Source: Nemertoderma westbladi
Lineage: Eukaryota > Animalia > Xenacoelomorpha
Assembly: GCA_032718475.1 (NCBI GenBank)
Contig: JAUCBJ010007984.1
Coordinates: forward strand, 1 to 57,973
Direction: 5' to 3'
Length of the DNA stretch: 57,973 bases
Part shown: positions 1 to 37,769 of the stretch, piece after piece
How positions within the stretch are numbered: the stretch's first letter is position 1
Layout: every line of letters begins with the position of its first letter
Made by a program: the position numbers and the translations under genes
The notes under the pieces: model-generated
What the model saw: only the letters and a program-made list of their open reading frames with translations
Told to the model about the DNA's origin: nothing
Databases searched by the model: none

Positions 1-1
1 T

Positions 2-130
2 AATCGCCCAGTGGGTCGTTTATGTTTACTGGAAAGAGACAGAAAGCTCTCCGGAAACTATGGAAGGCAAGAAACTCTTCCCACGACCACTTCCCTAATC
101 CAACCCACATCTAGGGACTCCCCAACTTAA
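2..130 (+). CDS. 3' end of a putative BEL/Pao retrotransposon Pol (post-integrase DUF5641-like terminus), cut by the window edge
   Basis: Frame from nt 2 reads NRPVGRLCLLERDRKLSGNYGRQETLPTTTSLIQPTSRDSPT*. RPxxxLCLLE resembles the usual end of BEL/Pao Pol (RP(I/V)xKLxxL(E/P)). Only ~10 informative residues. Confidence 0.55.
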   Translation, partial: NRPVGRLCLLERDRKLSGNYGRQETLPTTTSLIQPTSRDSPT

Positions 131-651
131 TATCGTTCGGAGTGGGCGTGTGACTCTATTATTTTATATTATTTTATTATTTTTATATTTCTGTATGTAT
201 TACTATGTAATTTTATTATAATCGTTTTCTTTAATTTTATTCAGTAGAATGTTATTTTAGCGATTATTTAGTAGATTAGTGCAATATATATTCGCGTTTA
301 TTACTTAATTACTTATATTATATTTAGTGTGACGGTGAGAAACAAGTGTTTTTCTCTTTCCTTACTGTCCGTATTATATTATAAATACGTAACTACAGTA
401 AGATGAAATGTCCGTACTTATTAAAGTACAATAAAGCCACTACTATATTTAAGTATTATTGGTAGGCAGAGTATTAGGAATGCAAAGTTCAGATCCTCGT
501 GTCTCGGCTAAACCAAGCTCTGGGTAGACCTTGGAAACGAATTGCCTCTTCACACTGACATTGCTTCGTGCGATATTGCTCTCATACCGTATATTAAATA
601 ATACATATAGTAGCGTGATGTCCCTATAACAGTAGCGTATAACGCAAAATA

Positions 652-972
652 AATCTGTTAAACCCTTTGACCATCTGTAATTCTAGTCGATTAAGATATC
701 GCGGCACCCACCGATATACTTGAAAGACAAATTTTAGAATCAGTGGTTAACGTCCCCAGACAAGTTCTGGAATAAATCGGTGCCCATCTCAAATATTAAT
801 TATTTAATATTTGCTAATCCAATAAATCAAAATCTGTAAAATTCAGATCCTTCAACAATTCTAGTCAATTAAGATATCGTAGCATTTACCGATATTCTTA
901 AAAAGACAATTGTCATAGAATTAAGGATCTTGTGTCCCCAGACATATTCTAGAATCAAAATATGTCCATCTA
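652..972 (+). repeat. Diverged ~180-bp tandem duplication, each copy a long stem-loop
   Basis: AAATCTGT...AATTCTAGTC(G/A)ATTAAGATATCG...ACCGATAT...AAAGACAA...TAGAAT...GTCCCCAGACA...CCATCT occurs at ~652-790 and ~831-972. Confidence 0.8.
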
Positions 973-1784
973 ATTAGTAAATAATAAAATTTCAGGGAAT
1001 AATTTAAATTCATGCCTTTTAATGAATTTAATAAATTGCCATTTTTACGCAATTTATAACATTCCCAAAATTCCATTAATTAATAGATCACGGGAGCGGA
1101 GATTTATCTTCTTATGCGTATGAGTGTGCGAAAGTCTCCCAAACATAGTCAATAGCCGATAAAATTCATAAAGTCATGTATCAAACAGGACATTGACTAT
1201 TAAAGAATTACTATTAAATAACATCCCAGATCTGTATGTATTGGAATTACCCTAATTCTACCGCTAGCTTTGCATAATGTCACCATAGCAACAACCACGC
1301 TAGAATTAGAATTGAGTTAAAAGAACAATAGAAAGCTTGTCCCGTTGAATAGCATAGGGAATACATAGCGCACTACTAGTATCCAAGGATACATAATAAT
1401 ACAGTGACATTCTGGAAGGCATTGACTAACGGACAAATGGCCCGAATGTGCGTAGTTGTGACCAGTTGTGTGGTATTTGTGAGTTTATAGGTGAATGTTA
1501 CTGCTAAAGTGTGTTTACAGTAGCTAGTCGCAATCGTGAAAGTAACCTAACTCTCCAAGGAAAACCTGAAGTACATCTAAGCCTTTGGGACGGACAGTGG
1601 AGTGACTTGTGCCGGTTATCGTTGTCGTTGTACGGCTACGTCGTTGGCGAAAGTGCAGCGACAGCGGTATATCGGCGCTGAGGATCTCACACTGTCCGGG
1701 GGCACGGGAGAAGTAGGCAGCGACGCCCGCTCGCCTAATAAATATATAAACTCATTATAATATTGGTGAACTCGTATAGCAGAT

Positions 1785-3533
1785 ATGACTGAATTAATAG
1801 AAGATGATCTTGGTATCAGGGAGAGATATACTCTACCTTTACAAGCGTTTGTCGATAGCTTGATACGCGGCGACGCTGATCCAACTACTACGGAGGATGA
1901 TGGTCGTTATATCGAACCGCCAATGTCCCAGGAGCAACTTACGCGTGAATTGGACTATAGAAAATTCACTGCTCGCTATACGCATCGTAATGGTACGTAT
2001 ATGGACTTCTTGACTACTGGTCATCCTATTGATTTACACGACACCGACGATGTCGATACCGAAAGGGAAATGGTTTTATTTAAATATCATACCCAGCGGA
2101 GTCGAAACGACAAATCGAGAATAGAACACGAGAACTCTATTCGAAATAAACTCGAAAGAGAAGACGTTGAAGAACCTGATAAACGTAGCGGCTTCAACGA
2201 ATATCTAGAATTCCTAAGAGAGACCTATCTCAATGTTGCTAGTCAACAAAACCTCGAAACTCGATATCCTCAAGGTATACATCCAGATCCTATGATGGAA
2301 CTCAAACGGCTCTATTTTACGATGATGTATCTTACCGCCGATCGACCACTCCCTGTCGTTCCAGATAGCTTCAAACAGATGGAGGAATATTGTAAAACTG
2401 GAGAGCGATCACCCGCGTTTCCCCTTCAAGACGTGCGTCTTTGGTATTACTGTGACGAATGCCCTAGACCTAACCAGCAAATCGAAAGGCATAAACATCC
2501 GCGGAGACGTTGTGCTAAACACAGTTTTACGCGATATACTTATGGGAGTTTCGAGCGAAACCTTTTCGACGTATCACCTACGGTCGCGCGCCTTAAACGA
2601 TCATTGAACAAACCCATGATCAGAGTTCCGGAATACTCGGTCAGACCTCCTCATTCCCAAGTGATACCTCAAACTCTCGATCCTAATAGTATTACGGATC
2701 CTCCCGAGCTATACTCACTGTTCAAAGATCTAGTGTTACCTGAACAGTTGATTGGTGGCACTCCGGTAGTGGGTTCGTTAGATATTCGCCAACCTTACCT
2801 CGCTGGACTAGGACGCGGTCATCTAATATCACAGTTTAACCCCTACAACCGTCCTGGCCTCCCTCCGATTCAACCTGTTACAGAAGTCGAAGAGAGCGTG
2901 ATACGAAATGCGTTGGACGCTATTCGGCAGAAAATCGGAAAGGGAACTTACGATTGCTTGGAGAAACGTAAATTGCAACAACAAGTCCAAGCGGTGAAAG
3001 AACTAGCTTTACCCCAGTTCGATAGAGAAATACAAAATCTAGAGGAGGACATCGAACGTGGACGAACCTACTCCTTACAGGAATTCCTGGACGAGCGCTT
3101 GCAACAACAAGCTGAGGAAAATCAGCTCGAGGAGAGACATATAGAGCTGACTGAGAGGGAAGAAGCTGCTTTAGCCCAACCAGAAACTCAAATTCTCGTG
3201 ACGGATCTCTATTCCAAAACGATCCTCCACCCCTCGATGGTTCCTCATTTTAAAGACAAGCTCTTTGCTACGGTACAGCCTCAACCGGTTAATACTGATC
3301 TCAGATCTCACGAGCTCATTGCTGACGCTCCTATGATACAACGTCCACCCATCGCGGCTGCTCGTGTCGATGGTGTACTTGTTGAGCCTCCGGACAATAG
3401 AGCGGATCTAGTCCGTCGCATGGTACACGATGTTAACATACGCGCTAGACCTTTGCCGGACTCATTTTATGGAATTAAGGATCATCAATTTAAAGCAATA
3501 TTACATGGTAAAACCAGAAGATCCTACGCATAG
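1785..3533 (+). CDS. Uncharacterised 582-aa protein with a CxxC...HxH...C..H motif and a coiled-coil region (accessory ORF A)
   Basis: Uninterrupted 1.75-kb ORF in AT-rich DNA; CDECPRPNQQIERHKHPRRRCAKH from residue 223; Q/E/L-rich helical stretch at ~2900-3180. No family recognised. Confidence 0.8.
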   Translation: MTELIEDDLGIRERYTLPLQAFVDSLIRGDADPTTTEDDGRYIEPPMSQEQLTRELDYRKFTARYTHRNGTYMDFLTTGHPIDLHDTDDVDTEREMVLFKYHTQRSRNDKSRIEHENSIRNKLEREDVEEPDKRSGFNEYLEFLRETYLNVASQQNLETRYPQGIHPDPMMELKRLYFTMMYLTADRPLPVVPDSFKQMEEYCKTGERSPAFPLQDVRLWYYCDECPRPNQQIERHKHPRRRCAKHSFTRYTYGSFERNLFDVSPTVARLKRSLNKPMIRVPEYSVRPPHSQVIPQTLDPNSITDPPELYSLFKDLVLPEQLIGGTPVVGSLDIRQPYLAGLGRGHLISQFNPYNRPGLPPIQPVTEVEESVIRNALDAIRQKIGKGTYDCLEKRKLQQQVQAVKELALPQFDREIQNLEEDIERGRTYSLQEFLDERLQQQAEENQLEERHIELTEREEAALAQPETQILVTDLYSKTILHPSMVPHFKDKLFATVQPQPVNTDLRSHELIADAPMIQRPPIAAARVDGVLVEPPDNRADLVRRMVHDVNIRARPLPDSFYGIKDHQFKAILHGKTRRSYA

Positions 3534-6027
3534 TCTGAAGTTTCTACCATTGATCAATCCTCTCGACCTCGTCGAACTCGAACAACTACAAAAACATCTA
3601 GATCAGCTAGTTAAACTAAACTCATTTCGAAAACCGTATAATATTTCCAGAATAGAGAAAGAAATATTACCTCCGTACAATCTTGATGGATTCATTAAAA
3701 CTCGATTAGTGCACTGGAATCTTGACGTGTTATTCGAGGAAGAAAGAATAAAACGATATGGAGATGTGGAAACCTATACTACACAATGCTTAAAGTATAG
3801 AGATTTACCCAATGCTAGCGAATGCGCTACTTTGTGGCATCCAGTGGGAATGACTCTCGAAAACGCCACTAAAGAATGGAACGAGACTCTTAACGTTATC
3901 GAGATGTATGGCGTTGTTACTTATGACAACGAAGGTAGCGTTCCGGTGGGAGAACTAGGAACTACGCGAATGATACATATACGAGGACTCGCTGGTTCTA
4001 CCCACGTATTCACTCGAGCGTGTTCCGACGTGATTGATTATTCTTTTGAAACCCTTACGGAGACACAAAAGAAACTTCGACATGGACAATTCGAGCTCGC
4101 GCAGCGTTACGTCACCGACACCGAGCGCAAACCGGCCATGGGTATCGACGGATCAATGTTACCCCAACCCGTGCTCGAAATGTTGTTTAACGAAAGAATC
4201 CTAAAAATCGGCTCAGCTGTTTATGGAGATCTCCAAAACGATTTCCGGAATATGGAAAACATTCCATACCCTTTCGTTGATACTCAGCTGATTGCTCCTT
4301 GGGCCGAAGGCCGAGGTTTCTTTCGCACTATGTATGCCAATACACCCAGCGACATTACTAAGGTACAACGGACATCCATCGGACATCTTCCCTTTCAAGA
4401 ATATGGATGGAATTTCAAAGTTGGAAATCCTACCAATTACCAGCAAGTATATGGAGATCATTACTCTCGTTTATATTTTGATGGACCATTAACTGCGCCT
4501 GGTGCCGTATATAGCTTTATGAGTGTTCCACTTCGCCCTTCCTTAGCTATATACACGATCTTTGAAAACGCAGCACTTGCCGGTTGGCTAGCCGATGTGT
4601 GCAGTCGTACCATATGCGCTCACCCATTAATACTTGGAACTAAACTCGCCAAGTTAGACGAACACAATAAGTTTATACGTTTCGAATGTTTCCGGCGCTT
4701 TCTGACTCCGTTCCATAACGTCGACAGTCAGTTCAAGGACCGCGCGCTGACCAAACTCAGTCTGAGAGACTCAGCTGCGGAGAAGCTGAGTAGCGCTGGA
4801 TTTGCCGTTTTTCAAGACGTTTGTATACAGAACTTACATTCATCTGTCATACAAAGACCCCGAATACCTACAGGTTATTCTGTCGTGGAAATACAGACAG
4901 TGGATCCACTTACTGAGACCGACGCACCCACTTCGTCTATACAGCTGGAAGATGAACCAGTATGCTTGGAATCAGAAGCGATTCAGCCTACAGCTTCCCG
5001 GAGCAGTGACAATGATTATGTCATAGAGTGGTATCAAGGTCCACAGCGTCTCACAGCGTACGATTATCGACACGCCAACTACGTTTCTCGAAAACGTTGT
5101 CGATTATGCGCATCGAGAGACCACTTCACCCCTCTAGACTCGAGCGTACCTTGCTCCTATTTCCTCGAACAACCGATGATGGAAATATATTGTGCTTATT
5201 GCAGACTTAATAACTCTCATATTTTTGCCGTCTGCCCACAATTTATGACTCAATGTCACTACTGTCAACTTAAAGGACATGAAAGTTACAATTGTCCCTT
5301 TAATCGCGATTTAGAGAGCGTAGACGAGATGATCACCCTGCGATACATCCGAGCTTGGGAAGCGAACGCGGATTTACATTGCGAATCCCGACATCGCTAT
5401 TACCCTGGACGAGCTTACGAGGGAGTTTACGCGTTCCATCCTTATCTATTCGCGTCGATTGAACAGAAAACACGCGTACCAAGTTACGAGTTAATGAAGC
5501 GTGTTGGTGAGTGTATTTCCACCAAGTTTGTCAGAAAATACCTTAGAAACGTTAATCCTAATGATATAACCACATATCACCTGATCAATTTTATCCGTCA
5601 GGACCCTGAGTATGGCGACATCTTTGTGAACTCGCATCCTGAACTACAGGAAGTATCTCGGCGACCATATGAATATCGAACACGAGAACGTGAGCTGGAG
5701 AGAACCATTAAACCAAGAAAGTTCCTCACCACTCACGGTCCACCCACCGCTAGTGTCCAGACGACCCGTCAAGGACCCGTAGGAGCTGCCGTCCTGAGAC
5801 GCGCTCTAAAGGCCGTTAGACCTCGCTCCACTGAGGTTGATATTAATCAACCAGGTACTTCGACCAGCGGGTATACCGATCGTAACCCTACACCTTCTGA
5901 TGCAATTGAATTGCACCCTTCGCCTAGGAGCTACAGCCCTCCTCGTAAAGTGGCTCGCCCCAAAGAGAAAAGGACTCTTGCTAGCCTCACGAAACTGCGT
6001 AAACGCCGTCCGCGTAAGAAAGACTAA
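3430..6027 (+). CDS. 865-aa DEDDy (RNase D/WRN/EXD/mut-7-like) 3'-5' exonuclease domain + three CCHC zinc knuckles + basic C-terminus (accessory ORF B)
   Basis: ExoI VVTYDNEG (D166, E168); LPQPVLEMLFNERILKIGSAVYGDL (ExoII D267); FVDTQL; ExoIII-like PLRPSLAIYTIFE (Y375-x3-E379). Knuckles CRLCASRDH-x9-C, CAYCRLNNSHIFAVC, CHYCQLKGHESYNC. C-terminus KLRKRRPRKKD. True start could be 3430, 3469 or 3505. Confidence 0.8.
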   Translation: MLTYALDLCRTHFMELRIINLKQYYMVKPEDPTHSLKFLPLINPLDLVELEQLQKHLDQLVKLNSFRKPYNISRIEKEILPPYNLDGFIKTRLVHWNLDVLFEEERIKRYGDVETYTTQCLKYRDLPNASECATLWHPVGMTLENATKEWNETLNVIEMYGVVTYDNEGSVPVGELGTTRMIHIRGLAGSTHVFTRACSDVIDYSFETLTETQKKLRHGQFELAQRYVTDTERKPAMGIDGSMLPQPVLEMLFNERILKIGSAVYGDLQNDFRNMENIPYPFVDTQLIAPWAEGRGFFRTMYANTPSDITKVQRTSIGHLPFQEYGWNFKVGNPTNYQQVYGDHYSRLYFDGPLTAPGAVYSFMSVPLRPSLAIYTIFENAALAGWLADVCSRTICAHPLILGTKLAKLDEHNKFIRFECFRRFLTPFHNVDSQFKDRALTKLSLRDSAAEKLSSAGFAVFQDVCIQNLHSSVIQRPRIPTGYSVVEIQTVDPLTETDAPTSSIQLEDEPVCLESEAIQPTASRSSDNDYVIEWYQGPQRLTAYDYRHANYVSRKRCRLCASRDHFTPLDSSVPCSYFLEQPMMEIYCAYCRLNNSHIFAVCPQFMTQCHYCQLKGHESYNCPFNRDLESVDEMITLRYIRAWEANADLHCESRHRYYPGRAYEGVYAFHPYLFASIEQKTRVPSYELMKRVGECISTKFVRKYLRNVNPNDITTYHLINFIRQDPEYGDIFVNSHPELQEVSRRPYEYRTRERELERTIKPRKFLTTHGPPTASVQTTRQGPVGAAVLRRALKAVRPRSTEVDINQPGTSTSGYTDRNPTPSDAIELHPSPRSYSPPRKVARPKEKRTLASLTKLRKRRPRKKD

Positions 6028-6097
6028 CTGTTTAGAGTATCTTTAGGTTTTAGAAACTGTGATTTTTATATTTTATAGACTGAAAATCCCATTTTCT

Positions 6098-6108
6098 GGG
6101 AGCGGTGT
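6098..6108 (+). promoter_or_regulatory. Putative polypurine tract / 3' LTR boundary (GGGAGCGG|TGT)
   Basis: G-rich tract abutting TGT, 70 nt after the ORF B stop, as expected for an LTR retrotransposon PPT. Confidence 0.45.
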
Positions 6109-7412
6109 AAAAGCCTTTGCTGAATTGCCCCGTTATTTTTATTATTTTTACATTAAAATACTCTGTAGTTGATTTAATTAGTGTAAGAGACCGTATTATT
6201 ACTGTATCGGTGTTTTTTAGAGGATCTAAGAGCTATTTCCTCCGTATGTGTACTGTGGAAGGCATAGTTGATGATTCTATGGCAATTCGTGACGCAAAAG
6301 GTGATAGCTACTCTTGAACAGTAGTTACTATGACGACGGTTAACAGCTGATATTCATACGTGTTGATTTTCTTTGTTCTACGGCGTCTCTCAGTTCAGTC
6401 AGCCAATCAGAGCATTTTTATGGCTCTTGTACAGAGATTTCCTAGAAATCACTCAAGGCATTATTGTGCAGTGTTTACATTCTGTCCTGAGCCAGGAGAG
6501 AGCGGCTTGGAAATATTTTGTGCTTTTCTGTTTTAGCCTAACACTAGTAGGCTTAATTATAAGGACATATATCCGTTATCAAACCACACACACACACTGA
6601 ATCACTGTGCAACTCAACTAAACAAACCAAATCTGCATGTACCATACACTGGTGCATACTATATATTGTTATACTGCTATTTACTGTCGGTTCTTCATAA
6701 TATGGTTGATGAATTATTATATTTGGAATAACGATAAATAACCCCGAAAACCCAATATTCTTGATATACCGAAGGTAAGAGAGAAGGGTTACATATAACG
6801 ATTTTGACTTATGTTAAAGTGGTTTGAAGTGAATCTAATGTTATTTGATAGACCCTACATGATTCGGTCCGTGTTCCTTTTATATGTGACTAAAATCAGT
6901 GAAGATCGGCAGATTAGTGTGCAGTATTGTGCAGCATTGTGTATGAGTGATACTGATAACGAAGCATTTCCTAAAGAATGCGCCATATATGTGAATTATA
7001 ACTAAGCCATATCGTTGTGAGTAGTTTAAGTCATAACTCTGTTTATATAGATAGAGCGCCACGTCCTAAAGGAACTGTTAATATTTCCCGAAGGTGAATA
7101 ATATTGTCAGAGATTATATAATACTGTCAGTCGAATAATACATTAGGCTTACATAGCAATAAGATTAAGCCGTCGAACCCAATCTCCCGGGTATATCCAG
7201 TGGGTGAATGATCGCGCACCGATTGGTTTCGACTAGTGTAGTGAATCAAATACTTGTCATAGGCTAAAAGTGATTTATTATCTAGAAGACATCCTAATTT
7301 GGCGGGTTAAACTGCCAAAGGTCTGAAAGCGCGAACAACCGACAATGCACTCCAATACTAGAACCAGAAAATAAAGTGTAATAAAATGTACTTTGATCAG
7401 AGTTAATATATA

Positions 7413-9246
7413 GGCTCATTCCATGAAAAGGTCAACCTCCCCACTAATTTCTAAAAATGAGATGTAGCTTTGAATTTATACTTATTTTAGGTCAAAATTT
7501 ATCGTACTTCATGAATTCAGTGCTAAAAATTGTATCAACACAGGTGGTTTATCAAAAATAGTCGAATTACAAATTATGGACCTGCTCTGCACAAAATGTG
7601 AATAAAAGTGTGCAAAAGTTTGGTTTCCTGTAGGCACTTCCTATGACCAATAAATTAACATTTCTGAGCATGTACCAAATCAAAAATAAACCCATTTTCG
7701 AATTTTTTAGGTTTCATTTAATTTCACCAGTGTTTCATTCCTCTGTAATGAAATCAATAAAGTTAATCTTGTGATGTCCCATACTTTACCTAAAATAGTG
7801 AAATTTTTAGTTTATTCACAGAGATGTAACTCAGCCTAATCACCCAGTGGAATGCAAAGCACATTTGTGTTGCGTCATTGTATAAAACAATTAGTTTCAT
7901 CTTCACTCCCTCAGAAATATCATGGCGGCCAATTGAAAATTGTCCCATACTTTACCATTAAAATGGCGATTATATTAGTGCACTGTATTAATGTAATATG
8001 TGAAGCCATGAGTGATATAATACTCTAAGGTCATAGTCGGCCGTAAGAATAGGAGTCTATATTTGAACTGAGAATCATTCCTCAGTCAAGAAATCTTTGG
8101 TTTTATGCATGTAAAGTCCCATACTTTACCAAAAAATAGTGAAATTTTTAATTTATACACATAGAAGTAGTCTAACTCAGCCCAATCACCCAGTGGAATG
8201 CAAAGCACGTTTGTGTTGCGTCATCTAAAGAAACAATTACCTGTAGTTTCATAATCTACTCCCTCAGAAACATCATGACGGCCAATTGAAAATTGTCCCA
8301 TACTTTACCATTATAATGGCGATTACATTTTAGTGCACTGTATTAATGTAATATATGAAACCTGGAGGACAGGAGTGTTATAATGCTTTAGGGTGATAGT
8401 AGGGGGAAGCATAGAAGTATGTATTTGAACTAAGAATCATTCCTCAGTTAACTAATCTTTGAGTTTATGCATGTAAAGTCGCGTACTTTACAACAAATTT
8501 CAAAAAATTTAGTTTTTTAGCAGATAAGAAGATCGGTAAGTACAGTAATTGATACATTTTCAGAAAAATGGAAAGAATTTCGAAACTTTTTACAGACTAC
8601 ATGTGTACCAAGTTTGGTTATATTTCATCAATGATTGACGGACTTATTTAGGTTTTATCAAAATTTTGAAACTATCGGTACCAACAGACAGACTGTCTGA
8701 TATGTGACCTTTGATTCCTTAAACTTCAGATTCTATCCAAACTTTTGACAGACTTCATACGTACCAGGTTTGGTTTAATTTCATCTAAAAATGACCGAGT
8801 TATACAGTATTAGCGATCAAAAATTTGACAGATGACATACAACTCCTCAAGGGCACATATGCTAAGACTTCGGGTCAATTTGTGGGCCGCCCCACATTTT
8901 GTATCCATATCTTGGTTGGAAATACTTAGTTGCACTTTATTATCACTAATTATCCAGAAATTACTGTTAGGTTAAGTGTAAGAGACCATTTTGACCATAA
9001 AATTCGTACAGGTCCCGTACTTTACTTAGCAATGTCCCATACTTTACCACACAAACCACACTGTAAAAAATTAGCAATGCAGCAATTCGTCTTATATTTA
9101 TATTTTTATTTAAGCTTAATAATACAGCTTTATCCTAAACATCAACTCAACACCGTACCTGCGCACAATTCGCTAAATTTTAGAATTGAAATCATAAAAT
9201 AAAAAAAACCATTTCGTACGAATCCGTACTTTACCTTAATTGGACA

Positions 9247-11199: not shown

Positions 11200-11610
11200 A
11201 TTCATTATTGGGAGTGTTGTAGATGTCCACCTTGTCCCACCCATATTGTAGAAAGTCTCTATAAAATTTCAAGACAAACGGACAGGAATTAACAAAATGA
11301 CAGGCAATTTACATTCTAGAACATTATCGCCCCCTAGCGGCAGACATTTGAATATTACAGTCTAGGATTCATTCCCAAGTATAATTTCATATTGTAGAAG
11401 GTGTCTACAAAATTTCAAAAGAAACGGACAGGAATTAACAAAATGACAAGCAATTTACATTCTAGAACATTATCGCCCCCTAGCGGTAGACTTTTGAATA
11501 TTACAGTCTGGTATTCATTCTTCAGTGTCACTTAATATCGCATCGCAGTAGGTGCTTACAAATATTCAGAACTAACGAACAGAAATTAACAAAATGACAG
11601 CCAAAGAAAT
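11200..11610. repeat. ~146-bp tandem repeat (about 2.5 units) containing TCGCCCCCTAGCGG
   Basis: AAACGGACAGGAATTAACAAAATGACA...TATCGCCCCCTAGCGG units; motif starts at 11327 and 11473. Confidence 0.75.
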
Positions 11611-16737: not shown

Positions 16738-18361
16738 TATGTGACCCAACACATAGAAAGGGGTCAATTGACAAAAAAATGGTTTTTAACTTTTTGTTGG
16801 TTTTATATAGATAATTTAACGGAGAATTTCCCATTGAAAACCATTTGTTAATATCTCTTTTCGTTTTTGAGTTATTGTAGATTTAGTAAGACAAGGTTCG
16901 GAGATAATTTCATGCAACATTCTGAGAAAATTGGATTTAAAATTTTCAAACCTTCCCGCCATTTTCAGAAACCGCTGTGATTTTTCAAACATCATTTGAA
17001 CATTTCTGAATGGAATGGATATTCAATATCATCAACATAATTATAGCATTGGAAGTTTCCATGGACAGTTATTTAATATATTTTGTCAGTTTTAAGGTTT
17101 GACAGATTCTTTACATGTATGTTTGTCTGTCTGTATGTGTCCGTCCCTTATCTTATTTTGTCTATGAAATAATAAAGAAATTGCAATACCTAGTCAAAAT
17201 ATTTGCTACTGAGGGATTTCTTGGTCGGTAATTTTTTTTATGGTGCCAGTTTTAATGTTTGTGAGAATCTACACGGTCAGTATGTTTGTATGTCATTCTG
17301 TTTGTCTGTCTGTATGTATGTATGTATGTCTGACTTACAGACATACATATAAACAGACAGTAAAGATGATGTTCAACGTAAAAATTGATATCACAAATGT
17401 CTTCGCCGACATATAAAACCCCCATAGCCATATTTTGGTTAGGGTTAAATACTTTTCTTAATTTTTTGACGGACATACATACAGACAAACAGACTGACTG
17501 ACTTACAGACATACATAGAGACAGACAGTCAAGATTTCGTAAACATGAAAATCTGACATCGAAAATGGATTCACCGACCTGGAAAACCCCCCAGAACCAT
17601 ATTTTTGTAAAGTTACATTATTTTTTCAATTTTTTAACTGACATACATACAGTTAAATAGTCTGACAGACAGACATACAGACATACATAGAAACATACAG
17701 TTAAGATGATGTTAAACGTAAAAACTGATATCGGAAATGAGTTCGCCGACCTAGAAACCCCCCATAACCATATTTTAGTAAGGTTAAATGACTTTCTTAA
17801 TTTTTTGACGGACATACATACAGACAAACAGACTGACTGACATACAGACATACATAGAGACAGTCAGTCAAGATATCGTAAACATGAAAAACTGGCATCG
17901 AAAATGGATTCACCGACCTGGAAAACCCCCCAGAGCCATATTTTTGTAAAGTTAAATTATTTTTTCAATTTTTTCACTCACATACATACAGACAAACAGA
18001 CTGACAGACAAATAGACAGACATACATAGAAAAAGACAATTAAACGTAAAACGTAAAAACTGATATCGGAAATGAGTTCGCCAACCTAGAAAACCCCCAT
18101 AGCCATATTTTGGTGAGGTTATATGATTTTCTTTATTTTTTGACTGACAAACAGACAGACAAACCGACAGACAGACATTTTCTGTAAGTACTGTAACCTT
18201 AGAAGTTATTTTTTTGGATTCTACGTTAAATTTCGATCTTAAATCAATAAAAAAATGAAATTAAAATTTTTTTTTGTTTTCTATGATTTTTTCATATATT
18301 TGAAATTTCTGGAAAATGAGATTATTTGAAATTGACCCCTTTCTATGTGTTGGGTCACATA
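16738..18361. mobile_element. Non-autonomous DNA transposon with perfect ~32-bp TIRs and internal tandem repeats with (GACA)n/(TACA)n tracts
   Basis: TATGTGACCCAACACATAGAAAGGGGTCAATT at 16738 and its exact reverse complement ending at 18361; repeated AAAACTGATATCGGAAATGAGTTCGCC...AAACCCC units at 17340-18180. Confidence 0.85.
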
Positions 18362-20239: not shown

Positions 20240-21503
20240 TCCGACAGTAGACCACCGACAGCAGACAACCGACAGCAGAAACCGACAGCGGACAACTGAC
20301 AGCAGACAACCAACATCACACAACTGACATCAGACAACCGACAGCAGACAACCGACAGCAGGCAACCGAAAGCACACAACAAACAGCAGACAACCGACAG
20401 GATACAACCAACAGCAGACAACCGACAGCATTGAACTGACAGCAGACAACCGAAAACAAACAATCAATGGCGGACAACCGAGTTTGTTTAGTTTGAGATA
20501 AATCAAATAGGCCAATTTATATAATTTAATGTTTAGAAAATGAAAAATAACAATTCATGATAGTACGGAGCCCCTCAGTGGACTCAGTGGCCGACGAAAA
20601 ACCAATATCAGACAACCGAGAGCAGACAACCGACAGCAGGCTACCAAAAGCATACAACCAACTGCAGACAAGCGTCATCAGACAACCGAGAGCAGACAAC
20701 CAACAGCAGGCAACTGACAGTAGACAACTAACAGTAAATAACCGACAGTAGACAACTGACAGTAGGCAACCATAAACAGAAACTCGAGAACAGACAATCG
20801 ACAGCAGGCAACCGAGAGCAGACAACCGACAGCACACAGACGGCAGCATACAACAGACAGCAGACAACCGACAGCAGATACCCGTCAGCAGACTAACAAT
20901 GAAAGATAACAGACAACCGACAGCATACAGTATACAACCGACAGCAGTCAAGTGACAGTACCAAACCGACAGCAGACAACCGATAATAGACTACCAGTAG
21001 CAGATACCGACACCAGACAACCGACAGCAGACAACTAACAGTAGACAACCACCAACATATAACCTACAGCAGACAACCGACAGCAGACATCCGACAGCAT
21101 ACAACCGACAGCAGACAACCGACAGCAGATACCCGTCAGCAGACTAACAATGAAAGATAACAGACAACCGACAGCATACAGCATACAACCGACAGCAGTC
21201 AAGTGACAGTACCAAACCGACAGCAGACAACCGATAATAGACTACCAGTAGCAGATACCGACACCAGACAACCGACAGCAGACAACTAACAGTAGACAAC
21301 CACCAACATATAACCTACAGCAGGCAACCGACAGCAGACATCCGACAGCATACAACCGACAGCAGACAACCGACAACAAACAAGCAATGGCGGACAACCG
21401 AGTTTGTTTAGTTTGAGTTTAATCAAATAGGCCAATTTATATAATTTAATGTTTAGAAAATGAAAAATAACAACTCATAATAGTACGGAGCCCCTCAGTG
21501 GAC
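20240..21503 (-). repeat. Degenerate 14-bp satellite (CAGACAACCGACAG)n with internal segmental duplications
   Basis: Reverse-orientation relative of the 22958 array; ~248-bp block duplicated (~20869-21365); ~125-bp unique block at ~20465-20584 repeated at ~21385-21504. Confidence 0.9.
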
Positions 21504-22957
21504 TTTTAATCCCCGTTTTATAACTTAGTATCCATGTACGCTATCATCAATTAATTAATATTGAGATAACGAACATGTATGTATAGTAAGAAAAAAAAAA
21601 CGAGGATTTCGTGTTTTAAGTTTAAGTTTAATTAGGTGATCTGATATTCCCATTGCACATATTATACAATAAATGATAATTATTTAGGTTATACGTCATA
21701 TAATAATGATACATACTATACGCTAGGTTGTGACAATACAATGAGCAATAGCGAGGCTAGTATAGCTCAATGTATTGTCTGGGAGTGTCGAGCGGGTGGA
21801 GGTAGTATGTCGGGGGTTGTGCAAATGTTACTATACAAGCTAAGCAAGAGACTGTTGGTTGCTAATGGTTGGTAAGGCAAAACTCTTCTACACTTTATGT
21901 TGCTGTTGTTTCACCGTAGTTCCGATGAGCTGTTCCAGGTAGATTAGATTAAACTGGCGGGTCGATATTAGAGAAATTAAAAAAGTACAATAAATTTTCG
22001 ATGTAGGCCTAAAGATTATGAAATGGTCCTCTCACTGACTCCTTATGATAGCGAACACTTACAACTAATAAACAGTTTTCCGTTTTGGGTTAATTTCAGC
22101 TACCAACACTACAATGAATTAAGTGAAATACATCTAATTAGTTGTTACTTATTTAATTATTATAAAGTAATAATTATATAATAATTAGTATTACTTATTA
22201 ATTTATGAGAACCAGAAAAAGTCTGCCGAAGCTCATATTCAATAAATATATTTATAATATATCTATATTATTGTATTTAATATAATCTTTTAAATAACAA
22301 CGGACAAGACAATTAGTGGCTATCTATAGTACAGCAGTGATATTACTGTAGTAGCCTTTATTAAACACATGTTCTCATGAAAAGGTTAAGTTACTTAAAA
22401 GCACTAGCTGGTGCCTAATGGAAGAGAAAGGCAAGCACAGATAAATCAATTGGAGTTATTTGTTTGTAACATGCTCCTGTTGCTATGGTTATTAAAACAC
22501 CACAATCCATCAATGACTAAGTTTCCAATTGAGTCAGACACCTGGGACTACTGATTGAATGTATTGCATTAAACAAATAATGCATATTTAGATTGCCTGT
22601 TGTTCTATCTGCAGTCGGGCCCTTGTGAAGTATACCAGAAATTCTACTGTAATATTTCACTTTTGCAGTTTACCAAAAATGTGAATAATACCAGACTTTC
22701 TCCCGTTATATTTCACTTTGCAGTTACCCCCATGTGAAGAATACCAGATTTTCACTAAAAACCCAGGTTACAGAATGGCTCAATCTAACCAAAACAATAA
22801 ACGAATTAATATCTGTACAGGTTATAAGATATCAATAAACGCTAAAATAGACTTAATACGTAGAAATTAAAAAATACAAATTCTTCCAATCAGTATAAAA
22901 TTCCAATAGAATTTCGACCAAAAAGTGAAAACTTGATATTCTTCACATGATGGGCGT

Positions 22958-23978
22958 GTCGGTTGTCAGCTGTCGGTTGTCAGCTGTCGGTTGTCAGCTG
23001 TCGGTTGTCAGCTGTCGGTTGTCAGCTGTCGGTTGTCAGCTGTCGGTTGTCAGCTGTCGGTTGTCAGCTGTCGGTTGTCAGCTGTCGGTTGTCAGCTGTC
23101 GGTTGTCAGCTGTCGGTTGTCGGCTGTCGGTTGTCAGCTGTCGGTTGTCAGCTGTCGGTTGTCAGCTGTCGGTTGTCAGCTGTCGGTTGTCAGCTGTCGG
23201 TTGTCAGCTGTCGCTTGTCAGCTGTCGGTTGTCAGCTGTCGGTTGTCAGCTGTCGGTTGTCAGCTGTCGGTTGTCAGCTGTCGGTTGTCAGCTGTCGGTT
23301 GTCAGCTGTCGGTTGTCAGCTGTCGGTTGTCAGCTGTCGGTTGTCGGCTGTCGGTTGTCAGTTGTCGGTTGTCAGCTGTCGGTTGTCAGCTGTCGGTTGT
23401 CAGCTGTCGGTTGTCAGCTGTCGGTTGTCAGCTGTCGGTTGTCAGCTGTCGGTTGTCAGCTGTCGGTTGTCAGCTGTCGGTTGTCGGCTGTCGGTTGTCA
23501 GTTGTCAGCTGTCGGTTGTCAGCTGTCGGTTGTCAGCTGTCGGTTGTCAGCTGTCGGTTGTCAGCTATCGGTTGTCAGCTGTCGGTTGTCAGCTGTCGGT
23601 TGTCAGCTGTCGGTTGTCAGCTGTCGGTTGTCAGCTGTCGGTTGTCAGCTGTCGGTTGTCAGCTGTCGGTTGTCAGCTGTCGGTTGTCAGCTGTCGGTTG
23701 TCAGCTGTCGGTTGTCAGCTGTCGGTTGTCAGCTGTCGGTTGTCGGCTGTCGGTTGTCAGCTGTCGGTTGTCAGCTGTCGGTTGTCAGTTGTCGGTTGTC
23801 AGCTGTCGGTTGTCAGCTGTCGGTTGTCAGCTGTCGGTTGTCAGTTGTCGGTTGTCAGCTGTCGGTTGTCAGCTGTCGGTTGTCAGCTGTCGGTTGTCAG
23901 TTGTCGGTTGTCAGCTGTCGGTTGTCAGCTGTCGGTTGTCAGCTGTCGGTTGTCAGCTGTCGGTTGTCAGCTGTCGGT
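22958..23978 (+). repeat. Homogeneous 14-bp satellite (GTCGGTTGTCAGCT)n, about 73 units
   Basis: Directly visible; few point variants and one 7-bp phase slip near 23500. Confidence 0.98.
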
Positions 23979-24034: not shown

Positions 24035-26915
24035 TAGAGTTTCTGAGAATATTAAAATATTCGAATGATTTTTTTAAAGCATTCTAATATTCGAGCACTT
24101 TTATAAACAACTAAACAACTAGTTTTCACCGATGGATTAAATAATTATTGTCTGATTTTTCGATCTCCATCAATGTCCATTATTTTTTTAATTTCTACTT
24201 TGAATATAAAAGTATAATACAACTTGTCGATAATATCATTAATATAATGCAGACAAAAAGAGTGATACTAAATGTGGCAGTACATGGAAAAAAGTGACGT
24301 ATTCAGCGTTTTGTGAAAGGTAGAAAACATATTTAGATCAGCAATGTAACTATATTCGACTGTCTCTTTGTCCGTCTTTCGTACTTTAGGTTGTAGAATA
24401 TAACAAAGGCACACTAATTTGCTAAAGGTTTCACAAGATTCACTAGTTTTCCAGGTCAGTTTTCATGCTTATGCTTGACATAATATAGTCTGTCTGTCAG
24501 TCTATTTATCTGTCTGTCAATCTGTTGTTTGTCAAAATATAAGAAGACCCTCTGCTTGGCCAGTATTTTAGCTACGGTGTATTTCTGGTCTGTTATTTTA
24601 TTTTTGATGTTTGGCTGAATCTAGTCTGCCTGTTGTTTACTTTTGACAGACAGAGAGTCAGGCAGACAGACAGACTGATAGAAACACTACTAGATTCCAC
24701 CAAACACTAAAACTGACATGAGAAATGAAAACACCGAATAGGAAAACACCAAGATCTGAAATATTAGCTCTGTGGTGTGTTTCATTATTGTGAGGTTACG
24801 TCATTAACAAACATTATTTAAGACAGTATTGAGATGGAAGGTTCAAACTACGATATTTAGTCCGACACGATATCGTGTAGTTTTTGCTATTTTCCGAAGG
24901 CAAATACATATCTAGAGTTTATACTAAATATACCATTAGAAAGCCCAAATAATTTACTACAAAATGAGATGTAATCCAAAAAAATTGATGTTTGTGTCAT
25001 GTGTCCATTCTTACCTGGCAAACTGTGAATGAGGTATCTGGTCGGAAAAGTTGTGCAAAGGGGCGCCTCAAAGCCAATAGTCCCGAAGAACGTGTGGGGA
25101 AGTGGAAAAATCACTTCAGCAACTTGCTTGGGCAGCCACCAAACATCGAGGTCAGCCCTACAAGGAAAATATATGACAAGACACTACCTATAGAAACAGG
25201 GGACTTCACACCTGCCGAACTCCAAAGAAGCATTAAAAGCATGTCCAATAATAAAGCGAGTGGATTAGATGAAATCCCAGCGGAGGTATGGAAAACAGGA
25301 GTGCTAAACAGACTATTATTGAATGTTTGCAACCGGATGTTAAAAGGGGAAAAGCCTCCACCAATTTGGACTAAAGGTCAACTAAAGCCTCTCCCCAAGA
25401 AAGGAGACCTCGGTATACCAACAAACTATCGTGGGATCTGTCTGCTTGTGGTAGCTGCCAAAATATACAATAAAATGATTCTATATAGGATTAGGCCTCA
25501 CATAGAGAAACTACTGCGTAAGAGCCAAAACGGATTTCGACCAAGTAGATCAACAATAGCTCAGATACTTGCACTACGGAGACTGAGTCAACTATTAAGT
25601 CAAAGAGTCTCACCGCAGTCATGACTTTTGTGGACTTTAAGAAGGCATTCGACTCCATCCATAGAGGTAAAATGCTTGAAATCCTAAGAGCTTATGGAAT
25701 ACCAGAGGTAATCGTTGCTGGCATTGGATTGTTATATTGTGACACAGAAGCACAGGTACTCTCAACAGATGGTGAAACTGAGTTTTTCTCAATCCTGGCT
25801 GGCGTACTGCAAGGTGACACATTAGCACCATTACTATTTGTAATTGTACTGGATTACGCAATGAGGACGGCCACAAAGGGTGAAGATCTGGGATTCACAC
25901 ATCAAGAACGCAGAAGTAGTAGATATCCGTCAACTACAGTCACAGACACCGACTTCGCGGATGACATCGCCCTGCTCTCTAATACGCTAGCAGATGCACA
26001 GCTTCTACTAAATAAAGTGGAGAGGGCTGGTAAGGAGGTTGGATTGCATATAAATGCTTCCAAGACCGAATTCATGACCTTTAATGTTGATGGAAACTTG
26101 ACAACCATTGATAATAATCAACTAAGGAAGGTTGACGACTTCCAGTACTTAGGATCATGGATAGAGAGTAGCAAAAAGGACATAGAATTTAGGAAAGCAA
26201 AGGCTTGGGTAGCTCTATCAAAAATGGATACCATCTGGAAATCAGATCTCTCCAGGCACCTGAAGACTGAGTTCTTTCGAGCCACAGTGGAAAGTGTATT
26301 TTTATACGGGGGTGAGACCTGGACACAGACTAAATCACTTGAACAACGAATTGATGGTTGCTACACAAGACTACTAAGGGCAGCCCTAAACATCAGCTGG
26401 AGACAACACATGACAAACGCTGAGCTTTATGGTACAATACCACCTGTATCAACCACCCTCCGTGAACGCAGATTAAGATTCAGTGGGCACTGCTGGCGAA
26501 GTAAAGACGAGGTCATACCAGATCTACTTCTCTGGCAACCAACTCATGGAAAGCGTAGTGGTGGACGACCGGCCATAACATATATAGATCAACTTGAAAT
26601 ATATACTGAACTTGGGAGAAACGAAATTGCGACAACTATGGAGAATCGGGAAGCCTGGAAGGATCTCATTCCCACTGTCCGAGTTCGCTCGACTTAGTAG
26701 TAGTAGTGGTAGTAGTCAATTCTGTAACCGCCACAAATGCAGTTGAAAAAATCACTAAAATGACAAATAGATAATTAACTTGTGAGATTTACTTAATAAG
26801 TTAGCTTATACTTTTATTGTTCTTGTATAATATTGTAATAGTAATTATAATTTTAATACACTTAAAAGTATCAACGAATATTCGAATAGTAAAATAGCCA
26901 TTCTCAGAAACTCTA
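24035..26915. mobile_element. hAT-like non-autonomous element interrupted by an RTE LINE
   Basis: TIR TAGAGTTTCTGAGAAT (24035) / ATTCTCAGAAACTCTA (ends 26915); 8-bp flanks ATTCCTAT and ATTCTTAC (6/8 match); subterminal TATTCGAAT motifs. Confidence 0.7.
25013..26716 (+). mobile_element. RTE-clade LINE family 1, 5'-truncated; reverse transcriptase broken by a frameshift near 25590-25620
   Basis: KGDLGIPTNYRGICLL, QNGFRPSRST, FVDFKKAFDSI, GVLQGDTLAPLLF, DFADDI, FQYLGS, RERRLRFSGHCWR; the stop codon runs into a (TAG)n tail. Confidence 0.95.
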
Positions 26916-28520
26916 ATTCTTACGACGTAGTCCAAACTAACAATTTTTCTATAACTGTAAAAAGTTTATATTAAGTTGAGAAAATATTATAAATTATTGT
27001 ACATAATAAAGTGTTTCATGGTGACCTGGATTCAGCCTTCCCGATATTCGGAATATTTCCTAATGTTTTGGAAATATTTTTCGGAGAAATTATGTGGGGT
27101 CATTTATTTTTCTTTGGGGACCTATCTTTTTTTTTTCACGTGGCCCCATTTTTTTCAGTGGGGGTCCCGCAGACACCAACACCGGAGCTGATTACAGGTA
27201 CATAATTTGGTCATATTTGTGGAGGGGTATAAAACAAGTCGCGGTAAAAAGTTACATCGCTTGAGGCCAGCCTGGAAGCACAATCGCAACTGGAGATTCT
27301 GCTACCTTCAACTGACTCGAGATAGGCCTGCTGTATCTGTATCACTTCCCAGAAATCAGTTTATCCTTCCTTATCTTATAACTTACCCCACAACTGAAAT
27401 ATTCTTGTTTCGCCATAGTATAAAGGACGCCTTACATACTATTATGGAAATGGTCGATGTGCAACACATGACAAACGCCGAGCTTTATGGTACAATACCA
27501 CCTGTATCAACCACCCCCCGTGAACGCAGATTAAGATTCAGTGGGCACTACTGCTGGCGAAGTAAAGACGAGGTCATACCAGATCTACTTCTCTGGCAAC
27601 CAACTCATGGAAAGCGTAGTCGTGGACGACCGGCCATAACATATATAGATCAACTTGAAAGGGATACTGAACTTGGGAGAAACGAAATTGCAACAACTAT
27701 GGAGAATCGGGAAGCCTGGAAGGATCTCATTTCCACTGTCCTAGTTCGCTCGACTTAGTAGTAGTAGTAGTAGTCTATACTGTAACCGCCACAAATACAG
27801 TTGAAAAAAAATCACTAAAATGACAAATAGATAATTAACTTGTGAGATTTACTTAATTAAGTAGCTTATACTTTTATTGTTCTTGTATAATATTGTAATA
27901 GTAATTATAATTTTAATACACTTAAAAGTATCAACGAATATTCGAATAGTAAAATAGCCATTCTCAGAAACTCTAATTCTTAAGACGCAGTCCAAACTAA
28001 CAATTTTTCTATAACTGTAAAAAGTTTATATTAAGTTGAGAAAATAATATAAATTATTGTACATAATAAAGTGTTTCATGGTGACCTGGATTCAGCCTTC
28101 CCGATATTCGGAATATTTCCTAAAGTTTTGGAAATATATTTCGGAGAAAATATGTGGGGTCATTTATTTTTCTTTGGGGACCTATCTTTTTTTTTTCACG
28201 TGACCCCATTTTTTTCAGTGGGGTCCCGCAGACACCAACACCTGAGCGGATTACAGGTACATAATTTGCTCATATTTGTGGAGGGGTATAGAACAAGTTG
28301 CGGGAAAAAAGTTACATCGCTTGAGGCCAGCCTGGAAGCACAATCGCAACTGGAGATTCTGCTACCTTCAACTAACTCGAGATAGGCCTGCTGTATCTGT
28401 ATCACTTCCCAGAAATCAGTTTATCCTTCCTTATCTTATAACTTACCCCACAACTGAAATATTCTTGTTTCGCCATAGTATAAAGGACGCCTTACATACT
28501 ATTATGGAAATGGTCGATGT
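26404..28520 (+). repeat. ~1057-bp tandem duplication of the LINE 3' end, hAT right TIR and flank
   Basis: 26404-27460 repeated at 27462-28520 (CAACACATGACAAACGC...ATGGTCGATGT) with scattered substitutions. Confidence 0.95.
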
Positions 28521-31321: not shown

Positions 31322-33459
31322 CAGCTGAGCATGAGCAACAGGTATGAGGTTCTTGCCTCTGAGGCGGCAGATTACTGTGAGGGCTATACTGCCTTCACAG
31401 AAGCAGTTAAGTTAGCAGCTGCAGAAACAATTCCTGTATACCCTCGAAACAGGAAAAGGGCCCCCTGGACTGACAACAAAATCCAGAAGTGCCAAATGAC
31501 CTATATAAGGCTCAGAAAGAGTCCCGACTCAAACAGACTACAGCGGCCAAGAATGCAGTTAAGGCTGCATCTACACCCTGAACAGGCAGTACTCTGTTAA
31601 TCTACAGGAGCTAATAAACCAACAGGTTGATGCCATCAATGATGCTGACGACAACAGGCAATCATCCCAGGCATGGAAATCGATCAAATTGCTTACTGGG
31701 CGGAAAAGCCAACCAACCACCAAGGTTAAGGCTGAATCACCAGCCGATCGCCTCAATGGTTGGAAAGCCCACTTTGAAAAGCTCCTCAATAATGACAGGG
31801 TATTGCCTGATAACTTTATAGAAGTAAAAGTGTCTGAGTCTGTACTCCCAGATATTCCCATTGGCGATATCTCCTTTGCAGAAGTGAAGGCTGCTGCAAA
31901 GAGCATTAAGACCAATCGTGCCAGTGGAGTAGATGGCGTTCCCCCAGAGGTCTTTAAAATACCTGAGTGTTTAAAGCTCATCTATCCCATCATAGTAGAC
32001 ATGTACCGAACAACAAGAGTCCCACAGGAAATGAAAACGAATAAGTTGGTGCCAGTTCCCAAGAAGGGTAACCTAACACTCTATGGTTCTTTTCGGGGAA
32101 TCTCATTAATCTCGATTGCTGCAAAGCTATACAATAGAATTCTATTAAATCGCATCAGGGATCCCATTGAGAGACTGCTTCGTGGAAATCAGAATGCGTT
32201 CCGTAAAGGTCGTGGGACCATGGAGCCTATTTTGGCACTTAGAAGGATAATTGAAGAGTTATCAAAAAAGAAAGACAGGCATCTGGCTGTTATCTTTGTT
32301 GACTTCTTCAAGGCCTTTGATTCAGTCTCCCGCTCACGTATGTTCAGCATAATTTCATTATATGGGAATCCTGATGAAATTATTGCAGCAATCAGATCAG
32401 TATACGATGGTTCGACAACATTTGTGTCTACTGTTGATGGTGACACAGAACCATTTGAAGTGTTATGGGGCGTCCTCCAGGGAGACACACTTGCACCATT
32501 CTTGTTCATAATTGTGGTTGACTATGTTCTACGCATGTCCTTAGATCATCATAATGATGATGGCGTGATGATAACTCCACCTACTGGCTCCAGAAGTCGA
32601 GGAAATCCTGCCAAGTACCTAACTGATCTAGACTTTGCTGATGACTTAGGAGTACTCTCAAAATCACTAGAGGGAGCCCAACGGCTCCTCAGCTCATTAG
32701 AACATGCTGCTTCTAGTGTTGGTCTTTTTATTAACTCCAGAAAGACCAAAATTTTGACAGTTAACTTTGAAAGTTCTCAGCAAGTCTCTGATCGGATGAG
32801 CATAAGCTCAAAGGATGGTATGCTTGAGCATGTGGACGACTTCTGTTACCTGGGATCATGGATCCGGAAGTCAGGTGAGGACCTTCGAATACGTAAGGGA
32901 AAGGCATGGGCAGCCTTGAATAGGCTTTCCAGGATTTGGAAGTCACCGAGAATTAATCGGAAACTTAAGGTCCGATTATTTAGAGCAGCAGTAGTTCCAG
33001 TACTCCTCTATGGGAGTCCATGCTGGGCTCTAACTGCTGAGGACACCAAATCTCTGGATGGCACATTCACAAGAATGCTACGCCGGGTTCATTGTGTCAA
33101 GTACAATGCACACATCTCCAACCAGACACTAAATAACATTGGAGGTGTCTCATTGGTTCCCCCAAGCTAGACACTAGAACAAAATCGCGTCCGCTTTGCA
33201 GGACATTGCTTTCGCCGTGACGACCAGCCTGTGCATAATCTTGTACTTTGGCAGACTCATGGAGTGAATAAGCATGGTGGACAGCCCATGACGTTCTTGA
33301 GACGCATCTTAAAGGACACTGGCCTTGAAGATGCGGATGATCTAGCAAATGTCATGGGTGATAGGGAGTTGTGGCGGCGCAATTTTGTCGACAAGCCGGC
33401 ACAGCATTCTTAAAAATGCAGCTGCAATGCAGCATGCCGATACTAGTAGTAGTAGTAGT
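31322..33459 (+). mobile_element. RTE-clade LINE family 2, 5'-truncated, disabled RT ORF, (TAG)n tail, 31-bp TSD
   Basis: FRGISLISIAAKLYNRILLNRI, FVDFFKAFDSV, GVLQGDTLAPFLF, LDFADDL, FCYLGS; premature TAG at 33168-33170 (CTG in the 38080 copy); AGTAGGCCTTCCGCCCACAGGTAATTTATCA at 31291-31321 and 33460-33490. Confidence 0.95.
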
Positions 33460-37640: not shown

Positions 37641-37769
37641 TCCCCCCCACCCCCCCCCCCCCCCCATATTACAACGTATTACAAAGACTTGTTTTCCAGA
37701 CTCCGAGTTCGTACCCGACTCCGAGTTCGTACTGGTTCGAACGGGTCGCCGACTAAATAGATTCGAGTT

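Follow-up and report, generated by a model that had tools for sequence, protein, structure and literature searches.

A variant DEDDy-type exonuclease gene predicted in a likely BEL/Pao retrotransposon of Nemertoderma westbladi

We analysed a 57,973-nucleotide stretch of DNA from Nemertoderma westbladi (assembly GCA_032718475.1, contig JAUCBJ010007984.1, forward strand; the whole stretch is called the window below), concentrating on an accessory open reading frame (ORF) of a transposable element, ORF2 (P0001), which lies at 3412..6027 on the + strand and has 871 amino acids (aa) stop to stop. The reading that we favour, with a probability of about 0.4, is that ORF2 is a maintained gene for a predicted DEDDy exonuclease joined to zinc knuckles, which would likely trim host RNAs acting against the element. 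Transposon exonuclease genes are already known; what may be new here is the D-E-D-E site (i.e. Glu in place of the ExoIII Asp), the likely BEL/Pao carrier and the evidence of selection. The case bears on the question of whether the retrotransposons of animals make enzymes that counter small-RNA silencing, since it adds a likely third retroelement class (BEL/Pao) with an exonuclease gene, together with evidence that the gene is selectively maintained. It also presents a natural replacement of Asp by Glu where the reference domains never vary, and because the domain is small and well delimited its activity and substrate are directly testable.

Motifs and predicted fold of the ORF2 exonuclease domain

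The original prediction, made from the letters without database searches, was of a transposon-borne DEDDy-type 3'-5' exonuclease with an unusual ExoIII motif. All of the motifs that it named are present in the + strand ORF at 3412-6027; residues are numbered here stop to stop, whereas they had been counted from the Met at 3430 (hence plus 6), so that D166, E168, D267, Y375 and E379 become D172, E174, D273, Y381 and E385. The true start of ORF2 is placed upstream of Met147, because likeness to its one relative, P0003, reaches about residue 129. The predicted domain spans 3850..4620 (aa 147-403; + strand, as for all features of the element), as delimited by sequence profiles and a guided structural model. 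ExoI (D172-N-E174, 3925..3933; codons 3925-3927 and 3931-3933 for D172 and E174) aligns with D-V-E of P0003 and D-T-E of RNase D and falls on strand 1 of the model. The ExoII segment, LPQPV..ILKIG..D273..FVDTQ, identified by position matrix and NCBIfam match, occupies 4156..4290, with D273 at 4228-4230 and FVDTQ beginning at 4273. ExoIII, PL-x6-Y381-x3-E385-N, lies at 4528..4569 (Y381, 4552-4554; E385, 4564-4566); here the predicted PL..Y-TIF-E motif is present but the predicted spacing of x5 was wrong, and PL-x6-Y is also the spacing of WRN and RNase D (Fig. S1, PMC3706591). The long ExoI-ExoII insertion that had been noted is borne out as 29 residues (4009..4095) that are missing from P0003 in an alignment of the two proteins, and a second insertion of ~25 residues ahead of ExoIII is common to both.

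Neither a Pfam search nor a PDB sequence search gave a match for the ORF2 exonuclease domain, and P0003 reached only E 0.2 to PF01612. Among the 18,950 models of NCBIfam the only matches to ORF2 were two RNase D models (E 0.011 and 0.08, aa 252-297), and 25 of the domain's 30 ESM Atlas matches were in the DNA_pol_A_exo1 set (0.92), with 164 of 256 features in common, slightly below the 170 typical of same-family matches. A HMMER scan of 1.84 billion proteins returned P0003, which comes from a 9449-bp contig, as the single relative (648 aa, E 7e-8; BLAST E 3e-13, 30% identity); like ORF2 it has an exonuclease followed by a knuckle, and its motifs read D-x-E, D, DTQ and W-x2-PL-x3-Q-x2-Y-x3-E-N. 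When a profile of the ORF2/P0003 pair was compared with 69 bacterial RNase D/NrnC domains, extracted from six frames as the reference set, the score was 35.5 (E 9e-5), as against 20.9 for the best of 100 shuffles and 9.7 for the reversed control, and hhalign aligned the two across 87 columns that take in ExoI and ExoII. Searched blind against 301 bacterial genomes, the pair profile had matches at E<=0.5 in 58 of them, and in genomes G001-G121 at least 18 of the 24 matches lay inside PF01612 rows (counted by eye). A position matrix of RNase D/NrnC selected the ExoII segment as its best site (shuffle P 0.003 in ORF2, 0/300 in P0003), and DTQ was likewise a best site (P 0.03 in both proteins).

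We then modelled the domain with AlphaFold, using a 47-row alignment of which 45 rows were RNase D/NrnC and whose trimming was chosen for the four-residue register. The guided model had a predicted local distance difference test score (pLDDT) of 67.6 and a predicted template modelling score of 0.66, and placed D172/E174 on strand 1, D273 on the helix after strand 4 and Y381/E385 on the long last helix, secondary-structure positions that match those of a DEDDy site. VIA comparison with diDNase, Klenow, WRN, RNase D, Nibbler and EXD1 gave Z 11.7-10.1, with about 150 residues aligned at root-mean-square deviations of 3.2-4.3. Foldseek ranked RNase D, EXD2 and NrnC first, and its viral matches were likewise 3'-5' exonucleases and polymerases, none of them at E<=0.001. 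The structural check suggested with the original prediction therefore returns a DnaQ/RNase D-like fold, in a partly circular manner. Profile comparison, NCBIfam, ESM Atlas and guided model all support a DEDDy/DNA_pol_A_exo1-type fold, which we regard as almost certain for this domain on sequence and model evidence.

The register of the motifs depended on the alignment. In MAFFT alignments of P0003 with RNase D, ExoI and ExoII were in register in 40 of 40 settings and ExoIII in 32 of 40. With ORF2 and all 84 references, ExoI was in register in 26 of 40 settings and ExoII (D273) in all 40; with 45 references ExoIII was in register in 24 of 24 settings and ExoI in 0 of 24; and with the references' N-termini trimmed all four sites were in register in 45 of 54. 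Rival placements were rejected for both outer motifs: an ExoI at D209-x-S, the register of an alternative alignment (A3) that was left out of modelling, is without the two strands that should come next, and a Y-G ExoIII is followed by a proline-rich loop, as against the hydrophobic helix that follows YxxxE-N in both proteins.

At ExoIII the canonical Y-x3-D is replaced by Y-x3-E in both ORF2 and P0003, the Tyr being retained, and the ORF2 protein is for this reason classed, from its sequence, as a variant rather than a canonical DEDDy member. That YxxxE stands in place of YxxxD is supported by the alignment of ORF2 with P0003 and the RNase D references, so this part of the original prediction holds, although it had overlooked that the Glu is shared with a distant relative. 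BLAST pairs the Y-x3-E-N of P0003 with the YTIFEN of ORF2, and the spacing in P0003 is canonical for ExoIII. Because P0003 has the same YxxxE-N, the most plausible reading of the Glu is that it characterizes the family. The YTIFE codons show no change among the best 40 of 115 copy-difference rows (see below), which lends slight support.

The original account also missed the C-terminal knuckles. The zinc-knuckle region at 5098..5295 comprises a CxxC..H unit (C563) followed by two CCHC knuckles (C594, C615); it matches zf-CCHC_3 in Pfam below the cut-off (E 0.004), and the best scores of the ORF2/P0003 pair profile of the knuckles are to nucleocapsid proteins of retroviruses (E 0.003). The likeness of the knuckles to the fingers of nucleocapsid, AIR2 and Lin28 suggests single-stranded RNA. 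The C-terminal tail (5950..6024) is basic, with 48% K/R, and is possibly a nuclear or nucleolar signal.

Searches among candidates of similar length found no homologue with aa 90-700 of ORF2 (0 of 4444) or with its exonuclease domain (0 of 1631), and residues 40-270 of P0003 found P0003 alone among 1303 candidates. No related locus was confirmed in viral, metagenome or genome contigs, a phage search gave no match, and a plasmid search gave one chance match (E 6). As a separate observation, the ESM Atlas match of P0003 is a 57-member cluster (score 0.86) with DNA_pol_A_exo1 in 100% and zf-CCHC in 61%, commonest in Euglenozoa, which provides a lead to another exonuclease-plus-knuckle group.

The carrier element and selection on its genes

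The window was compared with contigs of four public runs (X1-X4, of which X4 is possibly RNA), for which depth is not copy number. In each run contig cover extends without a gap from base 1 to about 7337, and the contigs that match the element number 28,505 in X1, 52,469 in X2 and 13,018 in X3, with identities from <90 to >99%. The carrier of ORF1 and ORF2 is thus a very repeated and diverse element family.

At its upstream edge the window contains the 3' end of an ORF that runs off the window (2..130; RPVGRLCLLE at 5-34, stop at 128-130). These 42 aa have no Pfam match, but by eye they resemble the end of a BEL/Pao pol, that of Sinbad ending ..RKLCLLE.. (PMC554778). Downstream of ORF2, a purine-rich polypurine-tract candidate (6098..6105) directly precedes the TGT of a 1232-bp candidate for the 3' long terminal repeat (LTR), 6106..7337, which runs TGT...AACA. 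A candidate LTR-type 3' end, with a purine tract followed by a TG..CA repeat, is present, and Sinbad likewise has a purine tract followed by TGT and an LTR ending in AACA (PMC554778). The length of the candidate is at the top of the range of 0.2-1.2 kb reported for BEL/Pao LTRs (PMC3118150). Contig cover collapses in the last bin (ratio 0.09-0.28, where 0.35 is expected for an end at 7337), and one X4 contig passes into unrelated DNA at 7337. The transposon origin that had been predicted is supported by these results and refined to a likely BEL/Pao LTR element. Judged from sequence features, the exonuclease gene is probably carried by a BEL/Pao element; we do not put this higher because the reverse transcriptase, RNase H and integrase would lie upstream of base 1 and the 5' end, with its LTR, is outside the window.

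In the likely layout pol is followed by a spacer of 1.6 kb, which contains a hairpin and a TATA box, and then by ORF1, ORF2, the purine tract and the LTR. Two non-env ORFs and about 6 kb between pol and LTR are unlike the usual BEL/Pao arrangement, for which the extra genes named are env-like (PMC554778, PMC3118150), and we infer a whole element of ~13 kb or more, as compared with a usual BEL/Pao length of 4.2-10 kb. In the spacer, a G-U-rich hairpin at 1606..1683, picked by eye, had z -2.94 (0 of 200 shuffles) and ranked 2nd of 182 windows; it is possibly a packaging, export or translation signal. A TATA-like box at 1743..1750, about 40 nt ahead of the ORF1 ATG, is a possible internal promoter. 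The spacer also contains purine tracts at 139-150 and 1092-1099, the latter identical to the tract before the LTR and the former followed by TG and an AT-rich stretch that is possibly a relic LTR start, and a direct repeat (679-812 and 857-992, 73% identical). An Rfam scan of 1-9000 gave no match.

ORF1 (P0002) lies at 1785..3533 (587 aa stop to stop from 1770) and is an orphan: it has no match in Pfam, NCBIfam or PDB sequence searches and no transmembrane segment. A CxxC..H..H..C cluster occupies aa 228-248, and around aa 400-470 the sequence is acidic and rich in Gln/Glu. ORF2 overlaps it by 122 nt in the +1 frame. We rejected a -1 frameshift from ORF1 into ORF2 (ORF2 is in the +1 frame, and the phase of the heptamer at 3489 is wrong) and an env role (no hydrophobic segment; maximum Kyte-Doolittle 19-residue means of 1.19 and 1.07). 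A splice fusion into ORF2 was not supported, since the acceptor-like AG at 3650 differs in phase from each of the three candidate donors in 3000-3650.

Differences among copies point to conservation of both ORFs. In 3880-4620, 35 of the 40 differences listed were silent, when 23% of possible changes are silent (P 8e-18); those listed are the ones judged best supported (the best 40 of 115). The ratio of nonsynonymous to synonymous polymorphism (pN/pS) for the exonuclease domain is 0.04, and about 0.14 in the worst case, where all 12 unlisted X1 sites are replacements. No indel falls inside ORF1 or ORF2 among 12 listed of 54. The exonuclease domain is under strong purifying selection among copies, and ORF1, in which 8 of 9 listed differences are silent, is apparently under purifying selection too. 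Contigs in X1, X2 and X3 (2 samples) join 3142 to 5883 with ~23 other letters between; this junction marks a deleted subfamily without exonuclease and knuckles, and the gene is therefore dispensable in cis.

Proposed function and alternatives

DEDD enzymes coordinate two metals through four carboxylates, and the attacking water is positioned by the Tyr. In ORF2 the D-E-D-E site would bind two metal ions with the Glu standing in for the ExoIII Asp, and the insertion ahead of the ExoIII helix that is shared with P0003 may give room for the longer Glu side chain. An exonuclease that is catalytically active in this way is probable, and we hold an active enzyme to be somewhat likelier than a dead binding fold because D-E-D-E and Tyr are all retained. 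The zinc knuckles would hold the RNA substrate for the exonuclease, and there is a good probability that the substrate is RNA held in this way. The target would be RNAs by which the host silences or destroys the element (i.e. small-RNA guides or surveillance RNAs); whether it would lie on the host side rather than in the element's own nucleic acid we judge to be about an even chance. Exonuclease genes recur in Gypsy-like elements, Penelope-like elements and DNA transposons, whose replication is unlike (PMC5408684, PMC3706591), and this recurrence would be easier to reconcile with a role directed at the host than with a core step of replication. Host-facing RNA trimming is also favoured because most BEL/Pao elements do without an exonuclease gene. 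A bolder version, that D-E-D-E knuckle exonucleases form a distinct family active in anti-silencing, eroding PIWI-interacting or small interfering RNA (piRNA/siRNA) guides from their 3' ends and so enabling a BEL/Pao element to become very abundant, seems quite improbable; if it were true, an animal LTR retrotransposon would have an enzyme as its counter-defence protein.

A number of results weigh against the favoured reading. Only one homologue, P0003, was found. The ORF2 ExoI and ExoIII were not significant alone in the position-matrix analysis (P 0.13 and 0.79, with neither among the three best sites) and are assigned because of the alignment through P0003; ExoIII was in register in just 2 of 40 MAFFT settings with the full reference set, and hhalign set RNase D's ExoIII on the rival Y-G motif, which is without the acid. 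Foldseek returned no match to the model at E<=0.001 (best, RNase D, 7.4e-3), the fold match is partly circular given the RNase D/NrnC rows and the chosen register, and a single-sequence AlphaFold model was unusable (pLDDT 31). The ExoIII residue is Asp in 69 of 69 reference domains and in all nine rows of the Dada alignment, one of them without the Tyr (Fig. S1, PMC3706591), so Glu at this position may impair catalysis. Finally, the authors of the rotifer study favour 3'-end processing of element RNA, with activity unproven (PMC5408684).

The strongest alternative, which we consider rather unlikely, is close to that proposal: an active exonuclease would act on the element's own nucleic acid (the RNA 3' end, primer remnants or cDNA ends), with the knuckles bringing the enzyme into the particle as a second nucleocapsid would. 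The nucleocapsid likeness of the knuckles is in its favour, such a role has been proposed for the rotifer and Dada exonucleases (PMC5408684, PMC3706591), and the ORF2 ExoII is of the WRN/Dada type (LP..L..LL...I.K.G...D), WRN being an enzyme that acts on DNA. It is opposed by the existence of deleted copies without the domain, although help in trans is possible for these, and by the fact that most BEL/Pao elements have gag and pol only (PMC3118150).

It is unlikely, in our judgement, that the protein is instead a catalytically weak or dead RNA-binding fold, similar to EXD1 or Egalitarian, whose role would be to hold 3' ends or small RNAs, protecting or sequestering them, rather than to cut. 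The invariance of the ExoIII Asp in the references speaks for such a fold; EXD1 and Egalitarian are among the fold matches of the model (Z 10.5 and 9.8), and EXD1 and Maelstrom are described as inactive DEDD derivatives that retain RNA binding (PMC5408684). Against this, all four positions are still acidic and the Tyr is retained in two proteins that are only 30% identical. Dead DEDD folds usually lose the carboxylates outright.

Least probable, and very unlikely, is that ORF1 and ORF2 belong with the 6106-7337 repeat to an element of their own, either non-autonomous or nested, the BEL/Pao element ending earlier with its own LTR from about 149: the second purine tract followed by TG at 139-150 lies just past the pol-like stop, no single contig covers the whole stretch and summed depth (which is not copy number) is higher over 1-2750 than over 2750-5750, but in none of the four runs is cover broken between 1 and about 7337, none of the junctions listed leads to unrelated DNA between 130 and 6106, and the 6106-7337 unit has BEL/Pao-like ends, while a comparison of 1-1800 with 6001-7500 found no likeness (best E 0.058) and counts neither for nor against.

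Known systems and the rest of the window

Transposon-borne DEDDy genes have been published for the bdelloid rotifer LTR elements Juno and Vesta and the Athena/Terminon retroelements (PMC5408684, PMC6431247) and for Dada (PMC3706591). ORF3 of Juno, Vesta and Athena is, like ORF2, an RNase D-like DEDDy extra ORF after pol, with putative activity and the same proposed roles (PMC5408684, PMC6431247); according to the published accounts these ORFs have never been assayed. By motif description, the rotifer DEDDy motif is altered to DEED, whereas that of ORF2 is D-E-D-E (PMC5408684). Unlike the rotifer elements as described there, the present element has a pair of additional ORFs, its exonuclease ORF also encodes knuckles, and its copies show strong purifying selection; in the rotifers selection was examined for env-like and GDSL ORFs only, where neutrality was found, and the main text of that paper contains no occurrence of BEL or Pao (PMC5408684). 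The Dada elements of Laccaria and Ectocarpus have an ExoII that by eye is very similar (LP...L..ERILK.G...DL) and, like ORF2, a transposon-borne domain, but theirs sits in a DDE transposase and retains the ExoIII Asp, whereas here an LTR element carries the domain in a separate ORF (PMC3706591). With the WRN/EXD2/mut-7-Nibbler/RNase D/NrnC group (PF01612) ORF2 shares the predicted fold (Z 10-12, the members tied within about 1), the order of motifs and PL-x6-Y; it differs in falling far under the Pfam cut-off, in the Glu at ExoIII, in its two insertions and in that no HRDC or helicase domain was seen.

Our literature search, partial in scope, found no report of a BEL/Pao exonuclease, a D-E-D-E site or strong purifying selection on such genes, and a search for a DEDE motif or D501E data returned nothing relevant, subscription papers being mostly outside its scope. 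Exonuclease domains may occur in nematode Cer BEL-like elements, and priority for BEL/Pao is accordingly uncertain.

Elsewhere in the window there is an HPS3 homologue at 54556-57093, a single open frame of 845 codons that contains both Pfam domains and is apparently intronless there; its presence is suggestive of an animal host. Broken pieces of non-LTR retrotransposons lie at 24989-26697 and 31563-33170, and also at 27192-27758 and 37679-38296, with RVT_1 matches in three of the five frames scanned. Two 14-bp minisatellite arrays, at 20241-21401 and 22957-23978, have related units on opposite strands, and the second array gives rise to three long spurious ORFs. Further tandem or dispersed repeats were seen at 7735-8497 (unit ~350 bp), 11242-11520 (~146 bp), 17332-18178 (~168 bp) and 52928-53589 (~68 bp).

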